Source: a virus
Length of the DNA: 64,000 bases
IMG/VR virus record: IMGVR_UViG_3300014934_000112
Coordinates: 3,769 to 67,768 of that record
Direction: 5' to 3' (one strand)
In this document: piece after piece, positions 3,418-62,743 of the stretch
Numbering within the stretch: the first letter of the stretch is position 1
Layout: every line of letters begins with the position of its first letter
Notes under the pieces: generated by a model
Databases searched by the model: none
Seen by the model: only the letters and a program-made list of their open reading frames with translations
What the model was told of the DNA's origin: nothing
Translations under genes and position numbers: made by a program

Positions 3418-4079
3418 GATTTTACTTTCTCTACTAATGCGTTTGATTTAAGTGTGCATACTGGGCAAACATAATTCTTGTCGCCGTTATAATCTACATC
3501 AATTGTTCCATCTGTATCAACGTAACAAACCATATAGTTAGACGTAGAATCAGGGGTTAATAACCAATGACAACCTGTTATATGCGCAATATAATCTCTA
3601 TATAGCCTATATTCGTCTAAAGTAAGCAATGAAATTTTCTCGAATAACGTGCCATATGTTGTACCATCTAGCGCCATTAAATTTCTTTCTGTCAGCATTA
3701 TTTTGCTTTCATCACAGAAATAATCTTCAATCTCAGATTTTAATGTGTTCTGTAAATTCAAACGCAGATTGCTATAACGCCAATTATTTGTACTCACATC
3801 GAATTCTGGAGCAACATCCATGAAATCTTTTGTGATTATAAAGCAACCATTAGATTTCTCACGATGTTCTAGTAGAATCCATTCTCTATCAGCAATTTTA
3901 AATACACTTCCTGGCTTTAATCTGCCTACTTCTACTTTTGAATTTACTTCGGTAAACCTCACAATATCATTTACATCATTTGAAGAATCATTTTCTTCCG
4001 ATTTCATCATATCTTTATCTTCAATTACTTTTACGACCGCCTTGGCAATGTCATAAATATCTTCTTTATCTAATGTCAA
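3414..4079 (-). CDS. Hypothetical protein
   Basis: A 221-aa ORF co-directional with and abutting its neighbours. Confidence 0.4.
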   Translation of the reverse strand: MTLDKEDIYDIAKAVVKVIEDKDMMKSEENDSSNDVNDIVRFTEVNSKVEVGRLKPGSVFKIADREWILLEHREKSNGCFIITKDFMDVAPEFDVSTNNWRYSNLRLNLQNTLKSEIEDYFCDESKIMLTERNLMALDGTTYGTLFEKISLLTLDEYRLYRDYIAHITGCHWLLTPDSTSNYMVCYVDTDGTIDVDYNGDKNYVCPVCTLKSNALVEKVKS

Positions 4080-5079
4080 GCTTTCTCTCCTTTACAAATT
4101 CTCTGTATTTCTTTGTATACTCATAAGAATCTTTAAAAATATTACAGATACCGTTATACATTCTTGGCTCAAATTGTTTTACAATATCAAGTTCGTTTTG
4201 ATAATCTTTACAAAATGGACATCCGCAACAGCCTGTCCTTTTTAATCCATATCGTTCATAACAATCCGAATGTCTAATCTTAAAATATGCACAATATTCT
4301 GATTTGTCGCTATCCAAATACCAAAAGATTGGTCTGTATTGATCACACTGCCCGACTTTTTCATCAAAACAGCTTTTATATCTTGATGCCCTTACTCCGC
4401 CTTCGGCTTTCCGAACACCTATAATACTTAGATCGTATCCATTGTCTTTTATTGCTTTATGAGATACATCTTTCTTAGCATAGTTGCAACACTTCCCAGA
4501 AATCTTAAATTGCGGTGGGTTCTGGACTATAAATTCTTTTAAAAATCTGTTATAGTTAATGTTAAAACTACTCAATCTTTTGCCATTATTTAACGTACCG
4601 TGTGAATCACACCACCACATAAGAGCAGATTTGCACTTCGGATACTTCTGATATAAATCATCAAATGGTTTGTCTTCCCATTGGAATCCGTGGCTTTGCA
4701 ATCTATACATCATTTCGCTGACATGCTTAGACATGAATGGTTGTCCATAAATCTTACATGATAATGGAATTGCTTTAATTGCTTTCTGTTGGATAATCTC
4801 AATATCATATTTATTTTCAAGATATTTAAGATGGTCTTTAGTTGCTTGATACTCTAAACCAGTGTCAAACCACATGTAATCAACCTTGTTATGTATATCA
4901 CATTTCCAGATCATGTCTAACATTACATCACTGTCAGCTCCGCCAGAAATTGAGCATAAAATCTTTTTATAATCAGTTCTGTTTATAATTGACCATGCCC
5001 GAATCATGTTGTCACAAATTGTCTTGTTTGCAGGGCATGTATCTAATAATTCATCAATATTCTTAGGTTTCTTAACCAA
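4066..5079 (-). CDS. PP-loop ATP pyrophosphatase of the PAPS-reductase/DndC-like family, with a C-terminal Cys cluster. Uses a TTG start.
   Basis: SISGGADSDV (the SGGxDS PP-loop) lies near the N-terminus and the C-terminus ends CCGCPFC. The start is TTG at 5077-5079 with the RBS GAGGAAG seven nt upstream; there is no in-frame ATG upstream before a TAA. Confidence 0.55.
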   Translation of the reverse strand: MVKKPKNIDELLDTCPANKTICDNMIRAWSIINRTDYKKILCSISGGADSDVMLDMIWKCDIHNKVDYMWFDTGLEYQATKDHLKYLENKYDIEIIQQKAIKAIPLSCKIYGQPFMSKHVSEMMYRLQSHGFQWEDKPFDDLYQKYPKCKSALMWWCDSHGTLNNGKRLSSFNINYNRFLKEFIVQNPPQFKISGKCCNYAKKDVSHKAIKDNGYDLSIIGVRKAEGGVRASRYKSCFDEKVGQCDQYRPIFWYLDSDKSEYCAYFKIRHSDCYERYGLKRTGCCGCPFCKDYQNELDIVKQFEPRMYNGICNIFKDSYEYTKKYREFVKERKLDIR

Positions 5080-6075: not shown

Positions 6076-6102
6076 AAAACCCTTGTAAAATAAGGGTTTT
6101 TT
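6076..6102. terminator. Palindromic hairpin AAAACCCTT / AAGGGTTTT with a T-run. It lies just outside the left inverted repeat of the Dam switch.
   Basis: A 9-bp perfect stem with a 7-nt loop, followed by T6 on the plus strand. Confidence 0.4.
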
Positions 6103-6122
6103 GACGGTCAATTTTGCAATAA

Positions 6123-6138
6123 AATATTTCTTTTATGT
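6123..6138. repeat. Left inverted repeat (16 bp, AATATTTCTTTTATGT) of the invertible segment; contains the ATG of the plus-strand Dam fragment
   Basis: Perfect reverse complement of 6426-6441; 17 of 18 positions match if extended by two. Confidence 0.8.
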
Positions 6139-6419
6139 CATGTGACTATAACTATTTCAAGGATGTAAAAAATTGCTTATTATATCTTGATCCGCCATAC
6201 AAAGGCACAAGCAATTACGCTAAAAGTTGTATGGATTATGATCATTTTTATGATTTTTGTCACGACATTGCGCAAAATAACCTTGTTATCATTAGCGAAT
6301 ACGATATGCCAAATGACGAATTTAAATGCATTTGGCAAAAAGAACGTACAGTGTGCCAAGATGCCAACCGAATAAATGGACAAAAGGCAACTGAAAAATT
6401 ATTTATTCCCAATTTATGA
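6135..6419 (+). CDS. dam: Dam-family N6-adenine DNA methyltransferase, C-terminal portion (catalytic motif IV DPPY), carried on the inverted segment
   Basis: MSCDYNYFKDVKNCLLYLDPPYKGTSNY..NLVIISEYD aligns with the E. coli Dam region FFYCESYADSMARADDASVVYCDPPY..PVLISNHD. There is no SAM-binding N-terminal domain and no RBS before the ATG. Confidence 0.65.
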   Translation: MSCDYNYFKDVKNCLLYLDPPYKGTSNYAKSCMDYDHFYDFCHDIAQNNLVIISEYDMPNDEFKCIWQKERTVCQDANRINGQKATEKLFIPNL

Positions 6420-6423
6420 TTAT

Positions 6424-6879
6424 TTACATAAAAGAAATATTCTTTAATGAAATCGCTTGTTTTCGTAAATTAATCACTCTCTCATAATACATATTTCTTT
6501 TTCCAGTCTTAACTTGTCCGAACCCGCCATTGAAGTATTTCCCTCCAAAGCTTGCACAGTATCCAATCAAAGCAGTGTATTCTTTAGAATATTTATCTCC
6601 TCCTGCTTTTCGATTTTCTCTAACTTCAACATAATGTTCCTTCGAACAAATTTCTGGAGCAATTGGAATCGTTGGATTTTCTTGAACGTATTTCAATAAT
6701 GCAATCAATTCATCATTAATGTCTGCGCCAATTTTGTTTTTACATTGAATCTTATCAATAATATTGGCTCCGCCAACAAATGGCTCTATGTATGTTTCAA
6801 TATTGTTATCATCAATATATTTCTGAATAATCGGTACAATATATTTTGCAATTCTATTTTTACTTCCTTGATATACTAT
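6424..6879 (-). CDS. dam: Dam-family N6-adenine DNA methyltransferase, N-terminal portion (SAM-binding motif I). It begins at an ATA codon and has no ATG/GTG/TTG.
   Basis: The minus-strand translation after a TAA stop reads RQ-I-VYQGSKNRIAKYIVPIIQKYIDDNNIETYIEPFVGGANIIDKIQCKNKIGADINDELIALL...YCASFGGKYFNGGFG...ISFM*. This matches E. coli Dam WAGGK...EPFVGAGSVF...ADINSDLISLY...YGYNG...FNVPFG. The in-frame ATA is at 6877-6879. Confidence 0.6.
   Translation of the reverse strand: MVYQGSKNRIAKYIVPIIQKYIDDNNIETYIEPFVGGANIIDKIQCKNKIGADINDELIALLKYVQENPTIPIAPEICSKEHYVEVRENRKAGGDKYSKEYTALIGYCASFGGKYFNGGFGQVKTGKRNMYYERVINLRKQAISLKNISFM
6426..6441. repeat. Right inverted repeat (ACATAAAAGAAATATT); encodes the last codons (..NISFM) of the minus-strand Dam N-terminal part
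   Basis: Perfect reverse complement of 6123-6138. Confidence 0.8.
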
Positions 6880-8125: not shown

Positions 8126-8420
8126 CTGAATCCTCCCATACTACATTGACATTGAACCCTAATTCCTTTAAAACATCTGTAAAATCATCAACATCTAATT
8201 TATGGTTTTCTAACTTAGTCCCATTGACTTCAATAGATTGCCAATCATCGGATTTAGTAATCGTAATTGTATTTGGTTCTTTTACTTCTTTTTCTTCTTT
8301 GTATTCCTCTTTATACATGTCAAAGTCTTCGCATAAAGCACACTCAAAAGAAGTATACTTATTCGCACAACTTTGGCACTGTAAATATAAATTGTCTAAA
8401 TCTTTATTCTTTTCGCCCAT
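8118..8420 (-). CDS. Hypothetical acidic protein with a CxxC..CxxC motif
   Basis: A 100-aa ORF containing CQSCANKYTSFECALCE. Confidence 0.35.
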   Translation of the reverse strand: MGEKNKDLDNLYLQCQSCANKYTSFECALCEDFDMYKEEYKEEKEVKEPNTITITKSDDWQSIEVNGTKLENHKLDVDDFTDVLKELGFNVNVVWEDSDV

Positions 8421-9075
8421 ATTCCTCCTCGCAAATATCTACTATATGTTCACAAAGTTCTTTCGGATACATTGATCTCAATGTTGCATCTTTTAATGCT
8501 TGAGTTCCGTATTTATTAGAACCTCTTGGAGCAGGTGGATGACACGCTGCACCATTCTTGCATGGCGGTTTAAATTTTGGATTTGGATGATTAGTCCAAA
8601 TATCCGTAGGTTTCATTCTACGTGTTTTCCAAGGCTCGTTTTGCATATATTGGCAATATGTAATAGTATATCTTGGAATATCTTGCATGAATTCCATTTT
8701 CCGTAAACCTGCTCTTGGGTTCTCCCAAAAATAAAACTTTGGTTTTAATTCTTTAACTAATTCCTTGACGTGAACATTCATATCATCACAAAACCTAGCA
8801 TAATCACTAACTGGATCAAGATTCCCTGTTTCTGAGTTCTTCTTTCTATGATGTGAAATTGCAGCAATACTATACGAAGTACAGTCTGTGCCAATCCATA
8901 TCACGTCTGGATGTCCAAATCTTTCAAGAATATCTTGTGTTGTTACTTTGCTTATGTCCGTATGCCATGAACTAGGAAATTTTTCGTCCCAGTCAATTGT
9001 GTAACATTCATGCCCTCTTGCTCTAAAAGCATTACTGATACATTCTGTACCACTAAATAATTCTAAAACTTTTAT
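8404..9075 (-). CDS. Divergent C5-cytosine-methyltransferase-like protein. It begins at an ATA codon.
   Basis: Extending the ORF-track start (GTG at 8904) upstream gives (ATA)KVLELFSGTECISNAF (motif I-like), then PDVIWIGTDCTSYSIAA (motif IV-like, with DCT in place of PCQ) and FYFWENPRAG (motif VI-like, with ENP in place of ENV). The in-frame TAA lies at 9082-9084 and there is no ATG/GTG/TTG between it and motif I. Confidence 0.45.
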   Translation of the reverse strand: MKVLELFSGTECISNAFRARGHECYTIDWDEKFPSSWHTDISKVTTQDILERFGHPDVIWIGTDCTSYSIAAISHHRKKNSETGNLDPVSDYARFCDDMNVHVKELVKELKPKFYFWENPRAGLRKMEFMQDIPRYTITYCQYMQNEPWKTRRMKPTDIWTNHPNPKFKPPCKNGAACHPPAPRGSNKYGTQALKDATLRSMYPKELCEHIVDICEEEYGRKE

Positions 9076-9084
9076 AATCTCTTA

Positions 9085-9306
9085 CCGCAATAGCGGTGAT
9101 CACCTTTAACTCCAGAGACTATAATTCCTTTCATTAAATATGTTTTTTATGTAGATCTACTTATATTAAATAATCACCAATATTTTTATAGTCTTAAATC
9201 ACATAAGACTACCAGAGACTTATAAATCCAATTAAATATGTTTTACGAAAATCGGTTATATGACAACAATTTTAGTTGTACCGATAAAAAACATATTTGG
9301 ATCAGA
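9085..9306. promoter_or_regulatory. Intergenic control region upstream of the C5-MTase-like gene. It holds two GATC-centred 10-bp palindromes, a hairpin and a ~34-bp direct repeat.
   Basis: The features are CCGCAATAGCGG (hairpin, 9085-9096), GGTGATCACC (9095-9104), GTAGATCTAC (9151-9160), the direct repeats CCAGAGACT.TAA.TCC..TTAAATATGTTTT at 9112-9146 and 9212-9244, and the hairpin AGTCTTA/TAAGACT at 9191-9211. Confidence 0.4.
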
Positions 9307-10254
9307 TTACTCCTCAAACTTTAAATTTTTAAAGAAATATGTAATGACATTGATATTCCAGCCATCACCAAGCACATTTGCTGCTTCATTTCTTGTCAAA
9401 CATTGTGTATATCCTGATGGAACACATTGACATCTTTCTAATTCTTCTTGATTCATATATCTAACTCCATCAAAAGCGTGTCCCGTATAATCATCAAGTT
9501 CACTGGCTTTAATTTTTCTTTTACCACCAGACAATCTTATATATTCATCAACACATTTTTGATAATGTTCCTTGTTCTTAAAAATTAATGTAGTAAATCC
9601 AGTTGAATAATATCTGTGAAACATTTTGCAAGGAGTTGAGTGCGGTCTGCTATCAACAACAACCAAACATCTAGCTTTGTCTCGATTACTCCACCCATCA
9701 GTTAAAATGTCATTCAATGAAACGTCAATTGGCTCAATGTCCTTATTTACACTGATGTTTGTCCAATAATACCGTTTTCTTAAAGCAGGAGAAACTTTTT
9801 CTGCATTAATTAGATATGGTTCGACTTCCATTAATTCACTAATAAAATCTCTATCATCTTTCTTCATAGAAGCTACATTCTCCATAAAGAAATATTTTGG
9901 ATTCACTTCTTTTAAAATTCGATAACACTGCTTGAATAATCCAGATTTCTCGTCATTATCTAACCCAATTCTTCTATCTGTCTTGCAAGCAATTGAGAAT
10001 GTCTGGCAGGGGCTGCCAAACATCACAATATCAATGTCTGTTTTATAGTCACCAGATTCTGTGTAAAGCACTCCATTTTTATATGTAACTTTATTTACAT
10101 CACCAATATGTATTGTTTCTGGATAATTTTCTTTTGTAACTTTGATTGCAATATCTTTAATCTCTGCTGCAAAGTATTTGTTAACTTTAATTCCTGCTTT
10201 ATCCAAAGCAATATGTCCACAAGACATTCCGTCACATAGACTTAATACGTTTAT
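9307..10254 (-). CDS. DNA (cytosine-5)-methyltransferase, Dcm-type. It begins at an ATA codon.
   Basis: The canonical motifs are (ATA)NVLSLCDGMSCGHIAL (motif I), FGSPCQTFSIA (motif IV, PCQ), FFMENV (motif VI, ENV) and ANVLGDGWNINVI (motif X). The ORF-track ATG at 10225-10227 lies inside motif I. An in-frame TGA is at 10264-10266 and the ATA at 10252-10254. Confidence 0.8.
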   Translation of the reverse strand: MNVLSLCDGMSCGHIALDKAGIKVNKYFAAEIKDIAIKVTKENYPETIHIGDVNKVTYKNGVLYTESGDYKTDIDIVMFGSPCQTFSIACKTDRRIGLDNDEKSGLFKQCYRILKEVNPKYFFMENVASMKKDDRDFISELMEVEPYLINAEKVSPALRKRYYWTNISVNKDIEPIDVSLNDILTDGWSNRDKARCLVVVDSRPHSTPCKMFHRYYSTGFTTLIFKNKEHYQKCVDEYIRLSGGKRKIKASELDDYTGHAFDGVRYMNQEELERCQCVPSGYTQCLTRNEAANVLGDGWNINVITYFFKNLKFEE

Positions 10255-10504
10255 ACCTGAAGTTTTGTTTTTATCTACGTTTCAATTTCTGTAGGTAAAA
10301 CAATATAAAAACAAATACATAAGAAAGGTTTTATCAAGTAATCCTAGGTAAAACGCAGTGCGCTGCCTTGTAAATACAAGGTTTAAATGACAGAAAATAA
10401 AAACAAAATTTTAAAGTCATCATATGGAAGAAATAAGACATGTCTAATCTATAGATATTTCTCCTCGAATAGTCATCAGAAATGTAACTAGAGATGTTAC
10501 ATTG

Positions 10505-11695: not shown

Positions 11696-12289
11696 TCACT
11701 CATTTTCATTGTGTTCTTCTGTCATGGACAGATTATCCGAAGTGCCTTTCCATAAGACCACCACATTTCTTTCTAATGATTTTTGTACATCAACCACTTT
11801 CTGATTTGTTGATCCTGCCCACGGATAAGACATGTCTTTCAATTCGTCTACATACTGTCCGTCTACGAGGACATCTATGTAAGGAAGAATCTCAAGTCTG
11901 CAATCGTACATAAGATGGTTTGTTCTACTTCTGCGAGAATATTCAGCTAAGTCCAAACCAATATCTTCTGCTTTATTCCCTGTATATAACCAGATTTTTT
12001 TGTCTGGCATAAACTCTTTGACAAATTTGCATATTGCAGAAACACCATCTCTATTTTCTTTTGCTAAAGGCTCACCGCCAAGAATACTTAACCTTGTATA
12101 TTGGGGCTTTGATAACTGATGCAATAGTTCCTCAATTTCTTTAAAAGTTAATTTATTGCCGCCATTAAAATCCCACGTTTCTTTATTAAAACAATTCTTA
12201 CAATGGAAGTGGCATCCTTGAACGAAGAGGGCTACGCCAAGCCCTTCTCCGTTGCTAATGTCCATTTTTCTTATTGAAGCGTATCTCAT
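11696..12289 (-). CDS. nrdG: Anaerobic ribonucleotide reductase activating protein (radical SAM)
   Basis: Contains GCHFHCKNC (CxxxCxxC); lies immediately downstream of and overlapping nrdD. Confidence 0.8.
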   Translation of the reverse strand: MRYASIRKMDISNGEGLGVALFVQGCHFHCKNCFNKETWDFNGGNKLTFKEIEELLHQLSKPQYTRLSILGGEPLAKENRDGVSAICKFVKEFMPDKKIWLYTGNKAEDIGLDLAEYSRRSRTNHLMYDCRLEILPYIDVLVDGQYVDELKDMSYPWAGSTNQKVVDVQKSLERNVVVLWKGTSDNLSMTEEHNENE

Positions 12290-14523
12290 CTATTCAGCTC
12301 CTTATCATCTAAGTGGTAAACTCGATCATGGATATCCCCATATCTTCCCTGATTGCCTCCATTCTTAGAAGTCCCAATGTAACCACAGCATCTGAATGCA
12401 ATATCCATAGTAGAACCATCTTCATTTCCGCACTGAGGACATCTCCATTTCAAAATCCCATCTTCGTCAACTAATGGAATATCGCCAGAGTATCCACATT
12501 TTTCACAATAACAGCTCTTTGTATTGATTTCTGCATACATAATATGATCGTACATATATTTAATTACTTCCAATAAAGCACTCACATTATGTTCCATATT
12601 AGGAGTTTCAATATAACTTATTGCTCCTCCTGGACTAAGTTTTTGGAATTTTGCTTCAATACGAAGTTTGTCAAAGGCGTCAATTTCTTCAAATACAGGA
12701 ATATGATAGCTGTTTGTAATGTAATTTCTGTCCTTGCCGTCAATTTTTTCAAACACATCATTACCGAATCGTTTCTTTAAACATTTAGCAAACTTATACG
12801 TTGTAGACTCTAAAGGTGTACCATAAATACTGTAATCAATATTTTCTTCATTCTTCCACTTCTCACATTTATCATTCATTCGCTTCATGATTTCTAATCC
12901 AAATTTTTCACCAATTCCACCATCTGAATGAGAATGCCCAGTCATATATTTGACACATTCATATAATCCTGCATATCCTAATGAAATAGTTGAGTATCCA
13001 TCAAATAATAACGGATCAATTACCTCATGTTTTTTTAATCTACTATACGCCCCATATTGCCAAAGAACAGGTGCGACATCCGACTTTGTTCCAAGAAGAC
13101 GTTTATGTCTTTCTTTGAGTGCTTTATGACATAATTCTGTTCGTTCATCAAATAATGCCCAAAATTCATCCATGTTCTTTTTGGAAGATAATGCGATATC
13201 TGGAAGAGATAATGTAACGACCCCTTGGTTAAATCTGCCATAATATTTATGCTGCTTTGGATCATAATTTTTTGCGTGTGCGATATTGCCAATTCCTTTG
13301 TCTGTAAAACGATCAGGTGTTAAGAACGATCTGCATCCCATACAAGTATAGACGTCGCCTTTTAACTCTTTCATAACCTTTTCAGAGATATAATCTGGAA
13401 CCAATCTTTTCGCAGAACATTTTGCTGCTAATTTTGTCAGATACCAATATTCTGTAGATTCGTCACAATTATCATCTTCCAGGACATAAATTAATTTTGG
13501 AAATGCTGGTGCAACAAATACACCATCTTCATTTTTAACTCCTTCATCTCTTTGTCTAATCATCTCTTCAATCAATAAAGCCAAATCTTTTTTCTCTTGC
13601 GGTGTTTTAGCTTCATTCAGATACATAAAAATGGAAATAAATGGGGATTGTCCGTTGGTCGTCATAAGCGTGATCAGCTGATACTGTATAATTTGTATAC
13701 CTTTTTTGACTTCTTCATACAATCTATTGGCTACAATTTTTTCAATATGCTGTTCTTTATATGGAATATCAATATGCGCCCATTCTAATTCAACTTCAGA
13801 TCTAATTTTCTTTCTACTCACATCTACAAATGGTGCTAAATGTGCTAAAGAAATACTCTGTCCGCCATACTGAGAACTAGCCACTTGTGCAATGCCTTGA
13901 GTCGTAATATTGCAAGCAGTTGAAAATGAATGTGGCTTTTCAATTAATACTTCGCTAATTACTGTGCCATTCTGAAGCATGTCTTCAATATTTAATAATC
14001 CACAATTATGCATTTTCTGTAAAAAATAATCTCTGTCATGAAAATGAATGATACCTTCCTTATGTGCTTGAACAATTTCTGGTGGAAGTAAATAGCGTTC
14101 TGTTGCATCTTCGCTAACGATACCAGCAATATAATCTCTTTTTGTTGGATTTAATACAGAGTTTTTATTTGCATTTTCATCTTTAATTTCTTCGTTGGCA
14201 TCCTCAATAAGCCCAAGAACTTCGCTGTCAATAGAGTCATAATTCTCTCTCTGGAACTCACGAACACTACGATAACCTTCATAAGCTTTAGCAGTTAATT
14301 CCTGCCCTTTCTCAACAAGTTTTTTGAATACCATTGCTTCAATTGCAGAAATATCAATCTCTTCAGATAATTGTTTACAATCGTTCTCAATCTCTTCTGC
14401 GACCTGTCTAGCCACATCCTCTTTGATTAAACCAGATCCATTTTTCATTGCTTTCATAATCGCTGTGTAAATTTTGGTCTTGTCGAAATCTACAACAGTA
14501 CAATCTCTTTTAATTACTTTCAA
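12286..14523 (-). CDS. nrdD: Anaerobic ribonucleoside-triphosphate reductase
   Basis: A 745-aa protein with an N-terminal ATP-cone (VIKRDCTVVDFDKTKIYTAI), a C-terminal Zn ribbon (CEKCGYSG...CPQCG) and the glycyl-radical motif RCCGYIG. Confidence 0.85.
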   Translation of the reverse strand: MKVIKRDCTVVDFDKTKIYTAIMKAMKNGSGLIKEDVARQVAEEIENDCKQLSEEIDISAIEAMVFKKLVEKGQELTAKAYEGYRSVREFQRENYDSIDSEVLGLIEDANEEIKDENANKNSVLNPTKRDYIAGIVSEDATERYLLPPEIVQAHKEGIIHFHDRDYFLQKMHNCGLLNIEDMLQNGTVISEVLIEKPHSFSTACNITTQGIAQVASSQYGGQSISLAHLAPFVDVSRKKIRSEVELEWAHIDIPYKEQHIEKIVANRLYEEVKKGIQIIQYQLITLMTTNGQSPFISIFMYLNEAKTPQEKKDLALLIEEMIRQRDEGVKNEDGVFVAPAFPKLIYVLEDDNCDESTEYWYLTKLAAKCSAKRLVPDYISEKVMKELKGDVYTCMGCRSFLTPDRFTDKGIGNIAHAKNYDPKQHKYYGRFNQGVVTLSLPDIALSSKKNMDEFWALFDERTELCHKALKERHKRLLGTKSDVAPVLWQYGAYSRLKKHEVIDPLLFDGYSTISLGYAGLYECVKYMTGHSHSDGGIGEKFGLEIMKRMNDKCEKWKNEENIDYSIYGTPLESTTYKFAKCLKKRFGNDVFEKIDGKDRNYITNSYHIPVFEEIDAFDKLRIEAKFQKLSPGGAISYIETPNMEHNVSALLEVIKYMYDHIMYAEINTKSCYCEKCGYSGDIPLVDEDGILKWRCPQCGNEDGSTMDIAFRCCGYIGTSKNGGNQGRYGDIHDRVYHLDDKELNR

Positions 14524-38127: not shown

Positions 38128-38323
38128 TTTCTTACCACTTTTGCCATAACAATCACCATTTGATAAATCATATTTGCAAGTTTTACCATCATCCAGATGG
38201 AAAATAATAAACTTGCCTTGTTTTTCTGCTGTAATAGTGTTTCAACTCCTTTTCTACCACAATATATAGTATATAATATTTATAGGCATACTATATATTG
38301 TGGTTATTTTTAACATCAAATTC

Positions 38324-38803: not shown

Positions 38804-39345
38804 TATTTCATTTCTCCTTTCACAACATAGGACTCAATCAATCCTTTTCTTAAGCGATCATTCATATCCTGAATGGCTTCCTCAATTGTTTTAAATTTAC
38901 ATGAACAAATATGCTCTTTTGTCAAATTAACAAATGAATATGTGCCATCGGATTTGTTCTTAAAAATAACCACCACTGATTCTTCCCCATTTGGCTTCTT
39001 AACAATAAATCTGAGCGCACCTTTTTGTGTTTCCTGTTTGTTTTCAAGTAAGATAGTATAATTGATTTTTAACCAGACACCATCTGCCCATACTTGTTTA
39101 ATTTTTTCTTCAGCATTTTGAAGTCTACAATGTTTATAATCAATACTCTCGATATTATAAGCACATGATTCAATGGCTTCTTTATCATTTTTTATTGTGA
39201 TTTGACCATGCGTTCCATTTCTTCCATCTGCAATCGCATCAATAAATTCTTCCACAGTATATTCTTTATCAAGCACGACATCATATTTAGTATATTTATC
39301 ATTATTAGAACGTGCTTGTTTTATTAATTTAAACATCTCTATCAC
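38803..39345 (-). CDS. Hypothetical protein
   Basis: A 180-aa ORF. Confidence 0.4.
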   Translation of the reverse strand: MIEMFKLIKQARSNNDKYTKYDVVLDKEYTVEEFIDAIADGRNGTHGQITIKNDKEAIESCAYNIESIDYKHCRLQNAEEKIKQVWADGVWLKINYTILLENKQETQKGALRFIVKKPNGEESVVVIFKNKSDGTYSFVNLTKEHICSCKFKTIEEAIQDMNDRLRKGLIESYVVKGEMK

Positions 39346-56962: not shown

Positions 56963-57793
56963 CTAAGCTGATGCACTCTGTGAGGCAAAGTATTGTGCTA
57001 ATTTCTTTGCCAAGTATAATTGCCCTTTGCCAGTCACATATGTTTTGGTGATCAACTTGTTTCCATTCTTAGTTTCAACTTCACTTTCTGTTAATTTGAA
57101 AATGCCCTGCTTAACATATCTTTCATATGGGGTATTATCTGACATGAGATACCCTTCTTTTCTTAACCACGCAAATAATTTGTTTCTGCCCATATGAATA
57201 TCTTGATTTTCTTTCTCAAGAAGCTTTGCCATTGTTTTCATATCAACCATTGTTGGTGTGGCACTGACCGTATTGGCAAAATCAACAAGTGGCTTCTGTT
57301 TACTGATAACTTCTTCTTTCTGGGCTAATAGTTCATCCTTTTGTTCCAAAGTGTTTTGCATAATATTCAATGCTTTCGCCATGATAGTTAAATCATCATC
57401 GTCTTTTTCAATTGGAATATATCCGCCTGTCTTACGAATCTGCGGAAGAACTTCTGATGTTACCCAATGCTTGAATTCTTTTGCCTTATCAAGCTTACTT
57501 CCAAAGATTAATGCATAAAGTCCTGACTCATTAATAAACACTGGGTATTGAACTCTCCCTAATTTGTCTGTTATAGATGGGGTAACGTTTCGTTCCCCCA
57601 TAATTTTATCTTCATCGTCAACATGATCTCGAATTGCTTTCTTCGAATTTGTATAACCAAGACACTCAGCTACATCTTTCCCTACGAACCACGGGTTATT
57701 ATTTAAGATTACCGTTCTGATATTCCCAAATTCATCATTATTAAACACCAATGTGTTTAATCCTTCATTTACCATATTCTTTTCTTCTGTCAT
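56963..57793 (-). CDS. Phage antirepressor with Bro-N and KilAC domains
   Basis: The N-terminal part reads LNTLVFNNDEFGNIRTVILNNNPWFVGKDVAECLGY (Bro-N); the C-terminal KilAC-like region reads MGRNKLFAWLRKEGYLM. Confidence 0.65.
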   Translation of the reverse strand: MTEEKNMVNEGLNTLVFNNDEFGNIRTVILNNNPWFVGKDVAECLGYTNSKKAIRDHVDDEDKIMGERNVTPSITDKLGRVQYPVFINESGLYALIFGSKLDKAKEFKHWVTSEVLPQIRKTGGYIPIEKDDDDLTIMAKALNIMQNTLEQKDELLAQKEEVISKQKPLVDFANTVSATPTMVDMKTMAKLLEKENQDIHMGRNKLFAWLRKEGYLMSDNTPYERYVKQGIFKLTESEVETKNGNKLITKTYVTGKGQLYLAKKLAQYFASQSASA

Positions 57794-57876
57794 TAAATAC
57801 CTCCTAAGTTATAATTTTACATTTTAATTTTGCACAAATGCCTGTGCGAGTCATCATATATAATAAGGAAGAAACT

Positions 57877-58527
57877 CTACCCGATTATATTCTGGATCAG
57901 CTCATAATACTTTGTTCTACCGACATAAGGTTTATGCTCTGCATCTTTTAATTCTTTCTTCAAAGTACATATGTCTTTCTGATTATCCATGCAATTTTGC
58001 ATCACTTCTATGTATCGAATACAATTCTTGATCTTTCTGTGTAATTCTTGTAAGGTTTTAAGATACCCAACAATCACTGCACGTTTCGCAGCATCAATCT
58101 TTTTAAACTCAATCGCATGAAGAATATCACTTCTGGCAGAGTCGGCATATGATAACGCCTGCTCTAATTCAAACTTCTTTTCTCCTAATTGATCTGAGTC
58201 ATATGCTAAAAGCCCTACTATAGCTCTTTCCTCAGTCTCTATGTTGTCGATCAATGTATTATCACATTCCCAGTCCATAAAGCAATTTCCATTACCTTTT
58301 CGCATTATTTCGCTAGATTCCATGGGTTTTCCAACTTTACCTAGCTCAATTTCTCGGGCATAAAATCCGTCTTTCATCCACGTATATTTATGCTTCAAAC
58401 CTAAAATGTGCTTTGCTTGCTTAGAGGTAAATTGAGTAGCTTCAGACTTACGATTATCACGAACGTATTTATTTCTTGCATGATCTCTTTTCACATAGAA
58501 CTCTCCATTCGTAATTATGTATTTCAT
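57877..58527 (-). CDS. Hypothetical protein
   Basis: A 216-aa ORF. Confidence 0.4.
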   Translation of the reverse strand: MKYIITNGEFYVKRDHARNKYVRDNRKSEATQFTSKQAKHILGLKHKYTWMKDGFYAREIELGKVGKPMESSEIMRKGNGNCFMDWECDNTLIDNIETEERAIVGLLAYDSDQLGEKKFELEQALSYADSARSDILHAIEFKKIDAAKRAVIVGYLKTLQELHRKIKNCIRYIEVMQNCMDNQKDICTLKKELKDAEHKPYVGRTKYYELIQNIIG

Positions 58528-58573
58528 ACATCACTCCTGTATTTAATTGTAGTTTTTTGGAAAAATTTTCATG

Positions 58574-58602
58574 TTGACGAACATGTTTAGAATTGTTATA
58601 AT
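58574..58602 (+). promoter_or_regulatory. Near-consensus sigma-A promoter with an extended -10 element, plus strand
   Basis: TTGACG (58574-58579), an exactly 17-nt spacer, then TGtTATAAT (58594-58602). Confidence 0.55.
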
Positions 58603-58609
58603 GATTTTA

Positions 58610-58785
58610 AGGATAATAATATCCTTATCTATTAAACAATTCTAAATATCAAATTCGATTTTCTATCGTGCTGCCAACACGGTAGATTCAAAAAATCTTT
58701 TTTTGTTATCTATGATTTGTTTAGTTGAAATTTTTAGTTTGTGTGAAAGTAGAAGTTTTACCAAAGACTTCTACTTTCTTTTTTA
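58610..58785 (+). ncRNA. Candidate ~175-nt small RNA, transcribed from the strong plus-strand promoter to an intrinsic terminator; no RBS-preceded ORF
   Basis: A promoter at 58574-58602, internal hairpins (AAGGATA/TATCCTT at 58609-58626) and a terminator at 58745-58784; intergenic, antisense to no gene except the last codons of 58721-59086. Confidence 0.35.
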
Positions 58786-59086
58786 TTGTCTGTATTTTTA
58801 TTCCAACATTGTATCTCTCTTTGTATGTAAATTGCAGGCATTTGATTATGTCAAATATGTCGTCCTGCCTAATATGAGAGAACAAATTCTCATCTTGAAT
58901 AAATTCGATCCAATGATATGAAAGATCTTTATCTTTGCCATAGATCTTCATCTTTCTATCATCTGCTCGAATCTTATATTCACTCAGAAACCACGATGAC
59001 ATTTCTGATGAGTGTAAATCAAGTACATCAATATGCATTTGATTTGATTGATTCGCTACCAATGTTTTTAATATTTGATTGTCCAT
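58721..59086 (-). CDS. Hypothetical protein
   Basis: A 121-aa ORF. Confidence 0.35.
   Translation of the reverse strand: MDNQILKTLVANQSNQMHIDVLDLHSSEMSSWFLSEYKIRADDRKMKIYGKDKDLSYHWIEFIQDENLFSHIRQDDIFDIIKCLQFTYKERYNVGIKIQTIKKKVEVFGKTSTFTQTKNFN
58745..58784 (+). terminator. Strong intrinsic terminator (12-bp stem GAAAGTAGAAGT / ACTTCTACTTTC followed by T6)
   Basis: A perfect 12-bp stem with a 10-nt loop, followed by TTTTTT. Confidence 0.6.
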
Positions 59087-59100
59087 ACATATACCTTCCT

Positions 59101-60129
59101 TTATTCTGTCATAATTTGATGTACACGATAATTCTTATAGTCCTCATCTTTATATAAATAACCAATAGTTTTACCAATTACAGTTTGACGATCACTAAAT
59201 TGTTTCTTTTTTAATCTATATGATATATAATAATTATAATAAAATTCAATTGCAATTTCACTAAATTGACGTGCGATTATAGATCGTGCGATTCCTTCTT
59301 TTGATTTAATATAATATAAATCTGCAATTGCCTTGATATCCATTTTAGATTTTAAATATTGTATAAAACCAGAATTAATAACATCAATGGTTGTCAATTT
59401 CTCATAAGATAAAGTGTTACCAGTTAATTCTAATTGAGACTGCACATTATTATATATCCTCTTTTGCTCTGCTTGATATTCTTCTATATTATTACATTTT
59501 TTTCGTGGTATTAATACAAAATCATCATATATATTCGTATCTCCCATTTTCAATTTATATTCATTCAATGTCTCGATAAAATCTTTGGAGACTGGTTTCC
59601 CAAAAATTGTTAAATCATTTTGATTAATATCTGAGAATTTTAGATTTCTTAACTCCTTTCCATTTATCCCATTATATAAACTCACAATATGAAATCTAGT
59701 ATTCAATTTGGTATCGGCTGATGCATTGCACGACATCAGATTCGAAATAAACGCATTTATTTTATCTGGTGTAACATAATTAACATTAACTCTATTTGAA
59801 AAATATATATCAACTGCTAATTGCAAGTTTATAAATTTATCATTAACAAATGGATTATATTTAATGTAATTTTGTTCATATGCATAAGTATATAGTTTAA
59901 CGAGCTGGTCATATCTTTTTTTAATAGAATTCATACTTTTGGTTTTTTTACCTCTAGTATCTGATAATATAGCCTCTTGGATTGTACCTGGTGCATACGT
60001 TAACCCAGATTCATTGTCGTCCGCAATATCAGAATCTAACAACCAATTCCATGTTGGGCGACGTGATTCTGATACGTGAGAATCTATATAATTTTGTATC
60101 AATTCTTTATTATTCATAATATTCTCCAT
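59101..60129 (-). CDS. Hypothetical protein (342 aa)
   Basis: A long ORF with no confident motif. Confidence 0.4.
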   Translation of the reverse strand: MENIMNNKELIQNYIDSHVSESRRPTWNWLLDSDIADDNESGLTYAPGTIQEAILSDTRGKKTKSMNSIKKRYDQLVKLYTYAYEQNYIKYNPFVNDKFINLQLAVDIYFSNRVNVNYVTPDKINAFISNLMSCNASADTKLNTRFHIVSLYNGINGKELRNLKFSDINQNDLTIFGKPVSKDFIETLNEYKLKMGDTNIYDDFVLIPRKKCNNIEEYQAEQKRIYNNVQSQLELTGNTLSYEKLTTIDVINSGFIQYLKSKMDIKAIADLYYIKSKEGIARSIIARQFSEIAIEFYYNYYISYRLKKKQFSDRQTVIGKTIGYLYKDEDYKNYRVHQIMTE

Positions 60130-60131
60130 TT

Positions 60132-60557
60132 CTAGGATGCCATTGCATTCATGTACGATAACATGCCGTTTTGTATTAAAATGCCATGTCCTATTTTTAA
60201 CATTAAAGATAGATCAGATATTCTTCCCCAATACTCTAAAAGATTATTCTTTGGAATTGTTCTTCCTTGCTCTAAATACACCTGTGATACCATTTTTAAT
60301 CCATTACTGGTATTTGGATAAATGGTTACATGTGTCGGTATCCAGTTCCTTAATTTTTTTGTAATTGGATACACGTTAATCTCTGTGCTCGTATTATTAC
60401 AAATATTATTAGAATATACGATGACTGGTCTTTTCCCATGCAAGATATGACTACCTTCAATTTTCGGCAAATCTGCAAAATATATTCCCCAAACTTGAGG
60501 ATTTTGATATTTGCCATATACATATTCTTTTCTTTCTTTGTTAGTATATCCGTTCAT
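60132..60557 (-). CDS. Hypothetical protein. Start reassigned to the internal ATG, with its RBS downstream of the 51-bp repeat.
   Basis: MNGYTNKERKEYVYGKYQN... with the RBS GAGGGACGTAAAA; the longer track start (60617) lies inside the repeat element. Confidence 0.4.
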   Translation of the reverse strand: MNGYTNKERKEYVYGKYQNPQVWGIYFADLPKIEGSHILHGKRPVIVYSNNICNNTSTEINVYPITKKLRNWIPTHVTIYPNTSNGLKMVSQVYLEQGRTIPKNNLLEYWGRISDLSLMLKIGHGILIQNGMLSYMNAMAS

Positions 60558-60612
60558 TTTTACGTCCCTCAACTTTCCCCAGTTGCATTTTTTGTTTTCA
60601 TGAATTAAATAT

Positions 60613-60663
60613 ACCATACTTTTTGCACCCTGTCAATAGGTGCAAGAAAGAAAGTTAATTTTT
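60613..60663. repeat. 51-bp exact repeat (copy 2) upstream of 60132-60557
   Basis: Identical to 21527-21577. Confidence 0.7.
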
Positions 60664-60717
60664 GTTGTGAACAAAGAATCTCTACATTTCTTATTATAAT
60701 GCTACCATAGAACAAAA

Positions 60718-61038
60718 TCAAGATATTTTTCGAACAGATGTTCTCTTTTTGTTCGAACACTTTACTTTGTGCTTACTTGGAAGGGGGAAATACTGTCTAA
60801 CTTTATGAGGCTTATCCAGTTTCCATTTCTTTTCTTCAAAATCATAGTCACAAAAATCAAGCACTTCGTCCACACATCCATCATTATATTTGTAATCCAC
60901 AATAACAGGATATGTTTTATACCTCATGTAACGTGATGCATTATCTGGTTTTAATGGTGGAATCTCTGCTGAAATCCACATAAGATTCTGGTTTGCTTTC
61001 TTTTCTTCCTTATTTTGTCTAATCGTATTTATCTTCAT
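60718..61038 (-). CDS. Hypothetical protein
   Basis: A 106-aa ORF. Confidence 0.35.
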   Translation of the reverse strand: MKINTIRQNKEEKKANQNLMWISAEIPPLKPDNASRYMRYKTYPVIVDYKYNDGCVDEVLDFCDYDFEEKKWKLDKPHKVRQYFPLPSKHKVKCSNKKRTSVRKIS

Positions 61039-61049
61039 ACAAAATTCTC

Positions 61050-61796
61050 CTATAAAATCCTAATAATTTGTTCGTAAATTGCAATCGCATTATCTTCTGG
61101 AAAGTTCTGGTTCACATGCATATGCCCAAAGAACCATTTTTGATAAATCACTTTGTCTTTTATTTGCTGTAAATAATCCGTTAACTTGTCAGATTTGTAC
61201 ACTCCTGATCCTTGATCCATTTGTCTTAAAACAGATGTGTATGGACTATGTGTAATAACGTAATCTACTTGGAAGTCATTTTTCTCTAAATTCATCACAC
61301 CTTCTGCCATCTCTTTATCAGATGGCAATTCTTCTTTCCACCAGCTCACATGATTAATCCTAAACATTTTGTCATAATCTCTGTACCATTCATTAATTCT
61401 TGGATCGTCTGGCTCTAAAATTCCATCTTGCACATCATGGGAACTGGTACCGCCAAATGTAAAGAATTTCTTTCCTTGAATTTCAAACACCTGTCCACGC
61501 ATAAGATGAAATACAGAGTCTTTGATCTTGTGAATCTTTCCGCCACACCATTTCTCTACAGGATATTGATATAAGCGGTCGTAATTTTCATGATTCCCAC
61601 ATACAAACAATGTAGTAAATGGCTTGTTATCTAACCATTCCAGATTATATCGTTCTTCTTTTGTGTCATGCCACAGTCCAAAATCTCCGCAGATAATCAC
61701 ATAATCATCTTTGGTTAACTCAACTCCCTCTGGGAAAGAACGACTGTTTAATCGAGTCATCCAATCCCCATGTGTATCTCCTGTTACAAATATCAT
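61050..61796 (-). CDS. Calcineurin-like metallophosphoesterase
   Basis: Contains FVTGDTHGDW, ICGDFGLW, CGNHEN and GHMHVNQ. Confidence 0.7.
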   Translation of the reverse strand: MIFVTGDTHGDWMTRLNSRSFPEGVELTKDDYVIICGDFGLWHDTKEERYNLEWLDNKPFTTLFVCGNHENYDRLYQYPVEKWCGGKIHKIKDSVFHLMRGQVFEIQGKKFFTFGGTSSHDVQDGILEPDDPRINEWYRDYDKMFRINHVSWWKEELPSDKEMAEGVMNLEKNDFQVDYVITHSPYTSVLRQMDQGSGVYKSDKLTDYLQQIKDKVIYQKWFFGHMHVNQNFPEDNAIAIYEQIIRIL

Positions 61797-62743
61797 ACAA
61801 TTACTCCTTCCAATAACTCTTCTAATGCCTGCATATTATCTTCATGTACTCTATCATCTTGATCTGCATCATCTTTGCCAGTCTTATAAGCAAACTTGAT
61901 AATCTCCATAACTCTATCATAACTCACATTAACAACATTTTCCTTCAATCCGTTAAAAGCCCCACTGATAATTTCCTTGTATGTCTGCGCAATATCATCA
62001 AACAATACATGAGTTTCTTCCTCTGTGATTGTTGCATACAGAAATGTCATTGCAGGGCTACTATGATTCAATAATCTCATAAGTGTATACAATACGTTCT
62101 GATCATCTTTATGATCGACAAGTGTCCAATACACAAAGTTCTTTCGTAATGTATGCGTACCAATATTGTCCTCAATTCCAACTGCTTTAGCACCTTTTTT
62201 AACAAAATCCAAAGCATTTGCTTCAGTCATGTGTCCTGATCCAGACTTACATGTTCCAAAAACATAATCATCCATTGGCACTTCGCCATCAATCTTGACA
62301 TCATATTTAGTTCCTGCAACAGCTTCAAAGAAAATATCCACTGCTTCAGTTACCAAATCGTTAAAGTATACAGTTCTGAATTTCTTTGTTTTCTTTTCCT
62401 GCTTACGAGTCTTATCGTCTAATAAATCGCCCCATTTGAGTCTGACGATATCAGAGATACGATATGCTGTATTGTTTCCAACTGTAACCAAAAGATTGTT
62501 TCTGGCAGCTACATATCGTTTGTACTCTGTGTACGATTTATCAATCTGGTCTCTAAAATATGCATTAAAGGCTGCAAATTGTTTTCTGTCCTTGATCGGA
62601 TACACTAAAGATGATACGCCTTTCTGTTTGTTAGATCGAGTCCATTTAGGACTTCCATCCTTACGTCTTTTAATCTTTGTTTCAGATTCTTCTGCGTTAT
62701 TATTGTTTACTGTTTCAATAACTTCAAACTGTGTTGCTGCCAT
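61793..62743 (-). CDS. Tyrosine site-specific recombinase (integrase, XerC/D-like)
   Basis: The C-terminal catalytic region contains IGTHTLRKNF (HxxR) and LLNHSSPAMTFLYATI (catalytic Tyr). Confidence 0.7.
   Translation of the reverse strand: MAATQFEVIETVNNNNAEESETKIKRRKDGSPKWTRSNKQKGVSSLVYPIKDRKQFAAFNAYFRDQIDKSYTEYKRYVAARNNLLVTVGNNTAYRISDIVRLKWGDLLDDKTRKQEKKTKKFRTVYFNDLVTEAVDIFFEAVAGTKYDVKIDGEVPMDDYVFGTCKSGSGHMTEANALDFVKKGAKAVGIEDNIGTHTLRKNFVYWTLVDHKDDQNVLYTLMRLLNHSSPAMTFLYATITEEETHVLFDDIAQTYKEIISGAFNGLKENVVNVSYDRVMEIIKFAYKTGKDDADQDDRVHEDNMQALEELLEGVIV

Follow-up and report, generated by a model that had tools for sequence, protein, structure and literature searches.

We report that in the 64,000-nucleotide stretch of viral DNA analysed here (positions 3,769 to 67,768 of IMG/VR virus record IMGVR_UViG_3300014934_000112; hereafter the window) a gene of the Dam family of adenine DNA methyltransferases is split between the two strands by a short inverted repeat, and that the 319-bp block bounded by this repeat occurs in both orientations on identical backgrounds, repeatedly and independently, in public contigs. 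In one orientation, which we call ON, the two halves of the gene form a single open reading frame (ORF), and in the other, OFF, which is the state of the window, they lie apart. We hold with high confidence that the block genuinely and recurrently inverts, completing or interrupting the methylase ORF as it does so, and we consider it very probable, with slightly more reserve, that the overall explanation is an ON/OFF switch. An earlier note made from the sequence alone had proposed such an inversion-based switch within a Dam-family gene, and the recovery of both orientations on identical backgrounds bears that proposal out.

The split is defined by a perfect 16-bp inverted repeat, AATATTTCTTTTATGT, found at 6123-6138 and as its reverse complement at 6426-6441 with 287 nucleotides (nt) in between, coordinates that we recovered just as the earlier note had given them. 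The core between the arms carries the last 93 codons of the Dam-family gene, and the whole block including the arms (6123-6441) measures 319 bp. The elements of the locus, with lengths of proteins in amino acids (aa), are as follows.

6123-6138, no strand assigned: left arm of the inverted repeat; as the segment lies in the window, this arm contains the start ATG of the C-terminal fragment.
6426-6441, no strand assigned: right arm of the inverted repeat, which in the direction of the gene encodes residues N-I-S-F-M of the N-terminal part.
6139-6425, no strand assigned: invertible core of 287 bp, comprising codons 152-244, the stop and 7 nt of 3' untranslated sequence, in the OFF orientation in the window.
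6135-6419, plus strand: ORF of the C-terminal fragment, 94 aa (MSCDYNY...DPPYKG...IPNL), with the catalytic motif IV, DPPY.
6424-6879, minus strand: N-terminal fragment of 151 codons (IVYQGSKNR...EPFVGGANI...KNISFM and stop), with motif I, EPFVGG, and the target-recognition region.

Both halves read as had been described, on opposite strands, and reverse-complementing 6139-6425 in silico gives a single, uninterrupted, in-frame minus-strand ORF; the predicted joining of the frames thus stands, at a length of 244 codons and not the roughly 250 aa first estimated. The C-terminal fragment is antisense to the genome, all window ORFs of at least 170 aa lying on the minus strand. In the ON orientation the 244-codon ORF holds the whole enzyme (EPFVGG, recognition region and DPPY), and translation would run through the junction to produce a complete methyltransferase. 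In the OFF orientation the first bases past the repeat form a TAA (6424-6426), at which translation would halt to leave a 151-aa product that retains the S-adenosylmethionine (AdoMet) motif and the recognition region and is devoid of the catalytic DPPY half, and the remaining 94 codons, those of the C-terminal fragment, are read from the other strand and have no Shine-Dalgarno sequence. As predicted in silico, orientation changes the gene product from a 244-aa enzyme to a 151-aa truncation. No alternative C-terminal cassette of the shufflon type was found, the N-terminal part in the OFF state meeting the TAA right after the repeat.

Taken alone, the 16-bp repeat is only mildly unusual and constitutes weak evidence. 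It is the sole perfect 16-bp inverted pair within 1 kb spacing in the window, and perfect 16-mer inverted repeats 30-1000 nt apart arose in 5 of 100 block-shuffled windows (mean 0.09). A search of the window for further copies returned none with up to one mismatch, and matches with three mismatches occur at a chance count. The repeat owes its significance to its exact coincidence with the break in the gene and to the comparative data described below.

The joined ORF is predicted to be an N6-adenine DNA methyltransferase of the Dam family (D12 class). It matches PF02086 with E=1.7e-18 and 67.8 bits (cutoff 22) over profile positions 1-195 of 253, as compared to E=3.5e-12 for the N-terminal half and E=0.002 for the C-terminal half when these are scored separately. 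It is collinear with PDB 7m6b and with DpnM (2dpm) across the junction (residues 3-193), and the succession of EPFVGG (motif I), the target-recognition region and DPPY (motif IV) follows the order seen in both structures. Comparing the inverted ORF with PF02086, a check that the earlier note had proposed, thus returns a match that is collinear over most of the length. The NCBIfam model TIGR00571 dam scores the joined ORF at 61.9 bits, under its curated cutoff of 114.85, and we therefore regard the protein as a member of the family and not as a close Dam orthologue. GATC is not depleted in the window, with 225 sites observed for 186 expected.

The nearest database proteins are 187-aa gene calls that cross the junction (...KNISFMSCDYNY...) and hence represent the ON form; they begin at an internal TTG because the start codon of the gene is ATA, and in 15 contigs that encode them the two repeat arms are found in corresponding places. 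The exact product of the 94-aa C-terminal fragment is found as a separate, opposite-strand gene on 163 contig records, the OFF form. We then searched viral and metagenome collections with an orientation-neutral anchor pattern consisting of the N-terminal flank and the repeat, which returned 37 loci, 36 of them complete enough for scoring, or after deduplication 17 OFF vs 12 ON; the same pattern had no match among GTDB representative genomes. Exact-sequence look-up of the window-type N-half haplotype gave 206 contig records in the OFF state (N-half alone) vs 75 in the ON state (joined), and look-up of the P0001-type N-half haplotype gave 28 OFF vs 14 ON. Records for either orientation come from SPAdes (NODE_), MEGAHIT (k117_, k119_), Logan and JGI assemblies of many samples. 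The ON and OFF contigs shown here are from different samples, and each contig holds a single state.

These records bear directly on the possibility that the arrangement arose in this single assembly through misjoining or faulty resolution of a repeat, to which a short inverted repeat placed exactly at both breakpoints of a metagenome-type sequence could be taken to point. OFF is, however, present on hundreds of contig records and ON on many others, from several assemblers and different samples, and a 16-bp repeat is shorter than assembler k-mers, so that de Bruijn assembly should face no graph ambiguity at this site. With each orientation given independently by several assemblers and many samples, the chimeric misjoin that the earlier note had named as a possible refutation is ruled out, and we give an assembly artefact practically no credence.

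Comparison between contigs places the two states on what is otherwise the same DNA. L035 (OFF) and L039 (ON) are 100% identical over flanks of 2280 and 3011 nt around an inverted 319-bp block, and L038 (OFF) and L013 (ON) show, besides the inverted 319 bp, one mismatch per ~3 kb flank. Across 48 unique loci the 287-bp segment occurs as 11 haplotypes, and the four common ones, which differ from one another at 19-27 of 287 positions (7-9%), are all found in both orientations (orientation counts 12/10, 4/6, 2/2 and 2/2). Once re-oriented, the copies preserve an intact 244-codon ORF in 31/31 OFF and 28/28 ON cases, and the ratio of nonsynonymous to synonymous polymorphism (pN/pS) over these 59 copies is 0.11 overall, 0.14 in the N-terminal part and 0.07 in the flipped C-terminal part. 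Both halves of the gene are under purifying selection, and because 59/59 ORFs are intact and pN/pS is 0.11, the OFF copies are not decaying pseudogenes.

The same comparisons speak to a single ancient inversion, whereby an OFF lineage would carry a pseudogene and an ON lineage an intact gene, with no switching between them. Such a history would agree with the presence of one state per contig and with OFF being commoner than ON; it is at odds with four diverged haplotypes that each occur in both states and so call for at least four changes, with ON/OFF pairs sharing >5 kb of identical flank, with the count of 0/31 OFF copies bearing a frameshift or stop and a pN/pS of 0.07 in the flipped part, as well as with perfect arms in every copy. 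We consider it very improbable and retain recurrent inversion of the 319-bp block.

Both arms are perfect and their spacing is always 287 nt in the 62 related loci that hold the two arms, and both are perfect also in L063, which is at 78% protein identity. In L064, a recombinant with a different C-terminal module, they are recognisable with one mismatch each vs the window repeat. The arms are thereby conserved across lineages of 73-78% protein identity; the 7-nt spacer beside the outer arm varies between copies, and right past that arm the module of downstream genes changes. Homologues at ~64% identity were checked for an equivalent repeat and none was present, and the switch is therefore specific to this clade. 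Within the 64%-identity clade, L137 (~1480-1782) and L123 (362-830) each hold a single half of the methylase gene, and the break falls at the residue where the window has its repeat (..IEF[M/R]CC..): L137 retains the C half, preceded by a terminator hairpin and AT-rich DNA, and L123 the N half followed by unrelated sequence. These breaks could mark a hot spot for rearrangement or insertion, or else a larger inversion.

The start of the gene is itself unusual. The N-terminal part has no ATG, GTG or TTG start and carries ATA at 6877-6879, where homologues have Met1 (MVYQGSK), and this ATA start position is kept in 59/59 Dam copies. An in-frame TAA stands three codons upstream of the ATA with more TAG and TAA codons above it, and an upstream extension, a frameshift or stop-codon recoding that would give the Dam gene an ATG was rejected on account of these in-frame TAA and TAG codons. 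In L064 the ATA is preceded, at 9 nt, by a good Shine-Dalgarno sequence. A stop stands just ahead of the start codon, and a short upstream ORF overlaps the gene (MGFLVKTNSISRK in the window); an ATA at the position of the homologues' ATG is found also in a short C5-like methylase of the window (9073-9075), an ATT is found in the L130 lineage (~1495-1500), and PGAP called an ATT start further inside the gene (P0127). The ATA and ATT starts may represent deliberate weak initiation.

Two candidate expression signals adjoin the left arm.

6101-6128, plus strand: promoter-like site TTGACG-16-AATATT, a 9/12 match with its -10 hexamer inside the repeat, pointing into the C-terminal fragment.
6076-6102, no strand assigned: strong hairpin flanking the segment on its outer side, with fold energies of -15.9 kcal/mol (plus strand) and -13.9 kcal/mol (minus strand).

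The hairpin is probably the terminator of the methylase gene in the ON state. The earlier note had called it terminator-like, which holds for its strong fold and not for the T-run rule of the consensus terminator scan, which it failed. Promoter-like matches of this quality number 7 vs 5.0 expected, i.e. chance level. A transcript from 6101-6128 would begin at about the ATG of the C-terminal fragment and would be a leaderless mRNA. Of the earlier description of the window as an OFF state whose C-terminal fragment has neither ribosome-binding site nor promoter, the first two parts remain, and the third has to accommodate this chance-level match.

These features could suggest that the OFF orientation is not off at all, the 151-aa and 94-aa halves both being made and reassembling into an active methyltransferase. 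Both are clean ORFs in the OFF state, the C half has an ATG inside the repeat, the promoter-like site would provide it with a leaderless mRNA, and related-phage contigs exist that carry only one half of the homologous gene with the same break residue. Yet the promoter-like match is at chance level, a Shine-Dalgarno sequence is missing, the fragment is antisense to the genome, and no precedent for a split Dam-family enzyme turned up in the searches made. We judge a split enzyme to be highly unlikely, and favour a model where the OFF orientation gives the truncated product.

Besides the Dam segment, a 4.3-kb methylase cluster contains two further invertons, Inv-1 and Inv-2, which lie 3-4 kb from it. 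Their position at neighbouring methylase genes strengthens the idea of switchable methylation.

10260-10411, no strand assigned: Inv-1, a 15-bp repeat AAGTTTTGTTTTTAT / ATAAAAACAAAATTT (14/15) at 10260-10274 and 10397-10411 with a 122-nt core.
9307-10227, minus strand: C5 cytosine DNA methylase gene (PF00145 E=1.1e-25), the coordinates being those of the OFF-state call and the true ON start lying inside the flipped segment.
10419-10446, minus strand: promoter-like site TAGACA-16-TATGAT, 10/12 and a consensus match only, fixed upstream of Inv-1 and reading through it.
9136-9298, no strand assigned: Inv-2, a perfect 15-bp repeat AAATATGTTTTTTAT at 9136-9150 and 9284-9298 with a 133-nt core.
8404-9075, minus strand: short C5-cytosine-methylase-like gene, ~224 aa (IKVLELFSG...; PF00145 E=3.6e-6, 27.1 bits vs cutoff 22).

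Inv-1 is located directly upstream of the C5 methylase gene and is the second difference between contigs L035 and L039. Among the related loci listed, 8 have it in the window's orientation and 15 in the opposite one. Turned the other way from the window, it brings AAGG and an in-frame ATG to the methylase (MTENKNKTSGINVLSLCDGMSCG...; MTENKNKTSG...), and in the window a stop closes the frame and motif I has no start ahead of it, suggesting that Inv-1 would act by giving the C5 methylase, or depriving it of, a ribosome-binding site and start codon. Gene calls track its orientation, both for this methylase (311/313 vs 297/299 aa) and for a radical-SAM-like gene that replaces it after Inv-1 in some genomes (367 vs 320 aa by orientation); the 367-aa gene has its called start inside the Inv-1 segment. 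The gene calls of 187, 94 and 297 aa are split or truncated versions of the switch genes. All four combinations of Dam and Inv-1 states were found, and in the window both Dam and the first C5 methylase are OFF.

Inv-2 is placed between the stop of the C5 methylase and the start of the short C5-methylase-like gene, and is flipped in 2 of 8 related loci (L200 and L201, with the window, L197-L199, L202 and L203 the other way). Promoter and terminator scans at Inv-2 brought out no mechanism of action, and at Inv-1 they brought out only the fixed promoter-like site upstream. With Inv-2 flipped, the TAATG that closes one 20-codon ORF also opens the next, a 20-codon upstream ORF whose own stop overlaps the ATA of the short methylase (ATAA); these overlapping frames hint at chained translational coupling. 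The aligned 14-mers of the three repeats fit AAT[AT]T[GT][GT]NTTTTAT, T-rich and with ...TTTTAT at the inner edge, and this pattern has 6 matches in the window, 5 of them at inverton arms, vs 0.34 expected, a test that is circular as the pattern was derived from these very sites. The DNA around the switches (4066-5079 and 11696-14523) contains 3'-phosphoadenosine-5'-phosphosulfate (PAPS)-reductase-like genes, several alternative C5 methylases, HNH endonucleases, and NrdD with a radical-SAM activase; it is mosaic across related loci, with cassettes swapped between genomes exactly at inverton arms.

In the mechanism that we propose, the segment would be flipped by a site-specific recombinase, for which the candidate is a phage tyrosine recombinase that would act at a distance on all three sites.

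61793-62743, minus strand: tyrosine recombinase (PF00589 E=1e-13), with weak XerA/XerD/XerC-type matches.

Its catalytic R, K, H-x-x-R, H and Y are all kept. We surveyed the 39 window ORFs of at least 170 aa and the small ORFs around the switch by Pfam scan; this gene was the only recombinase found, and no serine recombinase (PF00239) was present among those ORFs, in agreement with the earlier note, which had seen no adjacent serine invertase and no second recombinase in the window. The recombinase and the Dam switch share one contig in 12/19 viral contigs, and in 3 more the recombinase is on a sister contig from the same sample. The inner site in the gene, CATTAAAG-AATATTT-CTTTTATG, consists of two 8-bp inverted half-sites around a 7-bp spacer and, to the eye, resembles a tyrosine-recombinase core site. 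We can name this enzyme as the invertase of the switches only tentatively, being slightly more inclined to doubt the assignment than to accept it. A profile search with the recombinase over viral contigs gave matches confined to the same phage group, and a search of solved structures gave no match. A 17-bp imperfect repeat pair (57197 / 60711) that flanks 3.5 kb was considered as a recombinase-adjacent inverton and rejected, 8/8 related contigs being collinear there. The recombinase heads a conserved same-strand run (L265-L272) of a metallophosphatase, a 106-aa ORF, a PemK-family toxin, a 342-aa ORF and a Bro-N/ANT antirepressor, a set of genes that hints at a temperate or plasmid-like lifestyle.

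Inversion might also recur without any dedicated recombinase, by repeat-induced template switching during replication or by recombination, and persist as a near-neutral polymorphism. That no recombinase is adjacent, that the link between recombinase and sites is one that we infer, and that a 16-bp repeat arises by chance in ~5% of shuffled windows are all compatible with such an unprogrammed process. It is harder to reconcile with three repeat-flanked segments within 4.3 kb, all at methylase genes, polymorphic and with related repeats; with the design-like outcome whereby Inv-1 gives a Shine-Dalgarno sequence and ATG one way and Dam OFF gives an immediate stop; with the retention of the arms across lineages of 73-78% protein identity; and with the fact that the window's other inverted repeats of comparable length are not known to flip, the one such region compared, 57197-60727, being collinear in 8 contigs. 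We therefore regard unprogrammed inversion as unlikely, and a programmed ON/OFF switch as the better account.

Several observations nonetheless weigh against a programmed switch of methylation. Switching within one population, and with it any switching rate, would be an extrapolation from comparison between contigs, the ON and OFF contigs shown coming from different samples, and the conservation of the left arm is partly forced by the search pattern used to find the loci. The enzyme activity of the joined protein is predicted, and GATC is a possible target. With an ATA start and a poor Shine-Dalgarno sequence in most copies, even the ON form may be weakly translated, and the weak promoter-like site at 6101-6128 could transcribe the C half in the OFF state. 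The recombinase lies ~55 kb from the switches and is adjacent to no inversion found; it belongs to the core genes of the phage group, occurring also on many ~160-kb contigs without the exact Dam anchor, and could instead be an integrase or a dimer resolvase. Finally, the shared repeat motif was taken from the sites themselves, in AT-rich DNA. Flipping within one population, the enzyme that performs it and a role in bet-hedging are what we infer.

The carrier is a large uncultivated human-gut phage of Firmicutes type, whose genes in the window include Pol III alpha, NrdD, an NAD-dependent ligase, RecD, RecJ, a primase, sigma factors and several DNA-modification genes. Most of the related contigs measure ~150-210 kb, and the longest record is a 509-kb scaffold with the locus near its end; for the few records >200 kb it is possible that the phage integrates or that such scaffolds are chimeric. 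A DNA search against isolated phages gave no close relative, only methylase genes of Enterococcus phages that matched 12% of the query at ~70%, and protein searches with Pol III alpha and the recombinase retrieved only distant Firmicutes phages at 27-36% identity (nearest cultured ~33%). One cluster member carries the source name 'Anaerostipes hadrus', which is a host lead only. In the window, a perfect 17-bp hairpin (ACCACAATATATAGTAT...) at 38256-38321 is found near a 22-nt imperfect inverted pair 630 nt apart (including 38952-38973), and a similar ACCACAACATATGG hairpin occurs in a related phage (L137, ~1393-1432); these may belong to a repeated family of regulatory hairpins.

An independent parallel is provided by a 42%-identity Dam homologue from another gut-phage lineage (L130, L131 and L205-L209), which carries a different 16-bp repeat, GAAAAAGTGTTTTATT, at 1455-1470 / 1750-1765 in L130. 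Its arms lie just upstream of the gene and at about codon 85, and the 279-bp segment between them encloses the ribosome-binding site and the first ~83 codons. This segment is flipped in one of five contigs (L208) and forward in the other four. Invertons on phage Dam genes thus seem to have arisen more than once.

The closest behavioural analogue is the RecV arrangement of Clostridioides difficile. There, one non-adjacent tyrosine recombinase flips several short invertons (cwpV, flgB). The shared traits are segments of ~150-300 bp with repeats of 15-21 bp, a Firmicutes setting and, plausibly, a single distant tyrosine recombinase. RecV switches, by contrast, sit in 5' untranslated regions and work via terminators or promoters, whereas the Dam switch flips the 3' part of an ORF and Inv-1 carries a start codon.

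In the classification of Chanin et al. the Dam segment is a 'partial intergenic inverton', with one arm in the gene and the other 7 nt past the stop. Bacterial partial intergenic and intragenic invertons were surveyed with PhaVa, among them a premature-stop inverton in thiC of Bacteroides thetaiotaomicron (PMC10028968). As in the phage, a repeat arm is inside the coding sequence, the flip recodes or truncates the product, which for thiC is likewise a truncated N-terminal one, and detection relies on both orientations being present in sequence data; the bacterial cases are, however, chromosomal and validated with reads from single isolates, as opposed to the orphan phage DNA methylase and between-contig evidence presented here. 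Methylase genes are enriched among inversion targets, including the Type I hsdS shufflons of Streptococcus pneumoniae with the tyrosine recombinase PsrA/CreX, BREX PglX and Eco57I-like enzymes (PMC9881135, PMC4948785, PMC7096588, PMC7672463). In the hsdS and PglX systems too, inversion alters methylation output and a tyrosine recombinase is the typical catalyst, but specificity cassettes are swapped in bacterial defence loci and the invertase is usually adjacent, whereas here a small Dam-type orphan methylase in a phage undergoes plain ON/OFF truncation.

Phage-encoded inversion that generates mixed progeny as bet-hedging is represented by the G segment of Mu with Gin and the C segment of P1 with Cin (cited in PMC13501310). 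Those systems invert tail-fibre cassettes of ~3-4 kb with an adjacent serine invertase and an enhancer, in contrast to the segments of 122-287 bp directed at methylases described here. Phasevarions, in which Mod/Type III methylases are phase-variable via simple-sequence repeats (PMC13076061), share the random ON/OFF switching of a methyltransferase that yields epigenetically distinct subpopulations, and differ in relying on repeat-tract slippage in bacterial pathogens instead of inversion in a phage. Lastly, the TPMM study (Bioinformatics 2026) reports 16 candidates from read data, which it describes as the first putative invertons of viral genomes from the gut; its example is a Microviridae capsid gene, some candidates lie inside coding sequences, and the word methylase does not occur in it (PMC13501310). 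Its candidates resemble the present case in being inversions on metagenome-assembled gut viruses. In the literature searched we found no inversion switch in a phage methyltransferase, and the earlier statement that none was known in a phage dam gene holds within the limits of that search.

The purpose of the switch would be phase-variable methylation of phage DNA and possibly of host DNA, with mixed methylated and unmethylated progeny hedging between hosts whose nucleases attack unmethylated DNA and hosts in which methylated DNA is the target. A broader model, which we entertain as possible while leaning somewhat away from it, is that of a methylome switchboard: one phage tyrosine recombinase would act on three invertons that independently toggle a Dam-type and two C5-type methylases (or other cassette genes), giving up to eight epigenetic types of progeny as bet-hedging vs classical and methylation-dependent restriction, with comparable invertons having arisen independently in other phage Dam genes.

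Public human-gut data are rich in copies of the locus, which makes these ideas directly testable, and gene callers systematically split or truncate the genes concerned, which hides the switch from annotation. The three invertons add well-supported cases to the very few proposed for metagenomic viruses. Phage methyltransferases are usually viewed as fixed anti-restriction equipment; if the explanation is correct, random switching in a phage would mirror the phase-variable restriction-modification of bacteria, and would account for the persistence of a single phage among hosts that select against opposite states of methylation.

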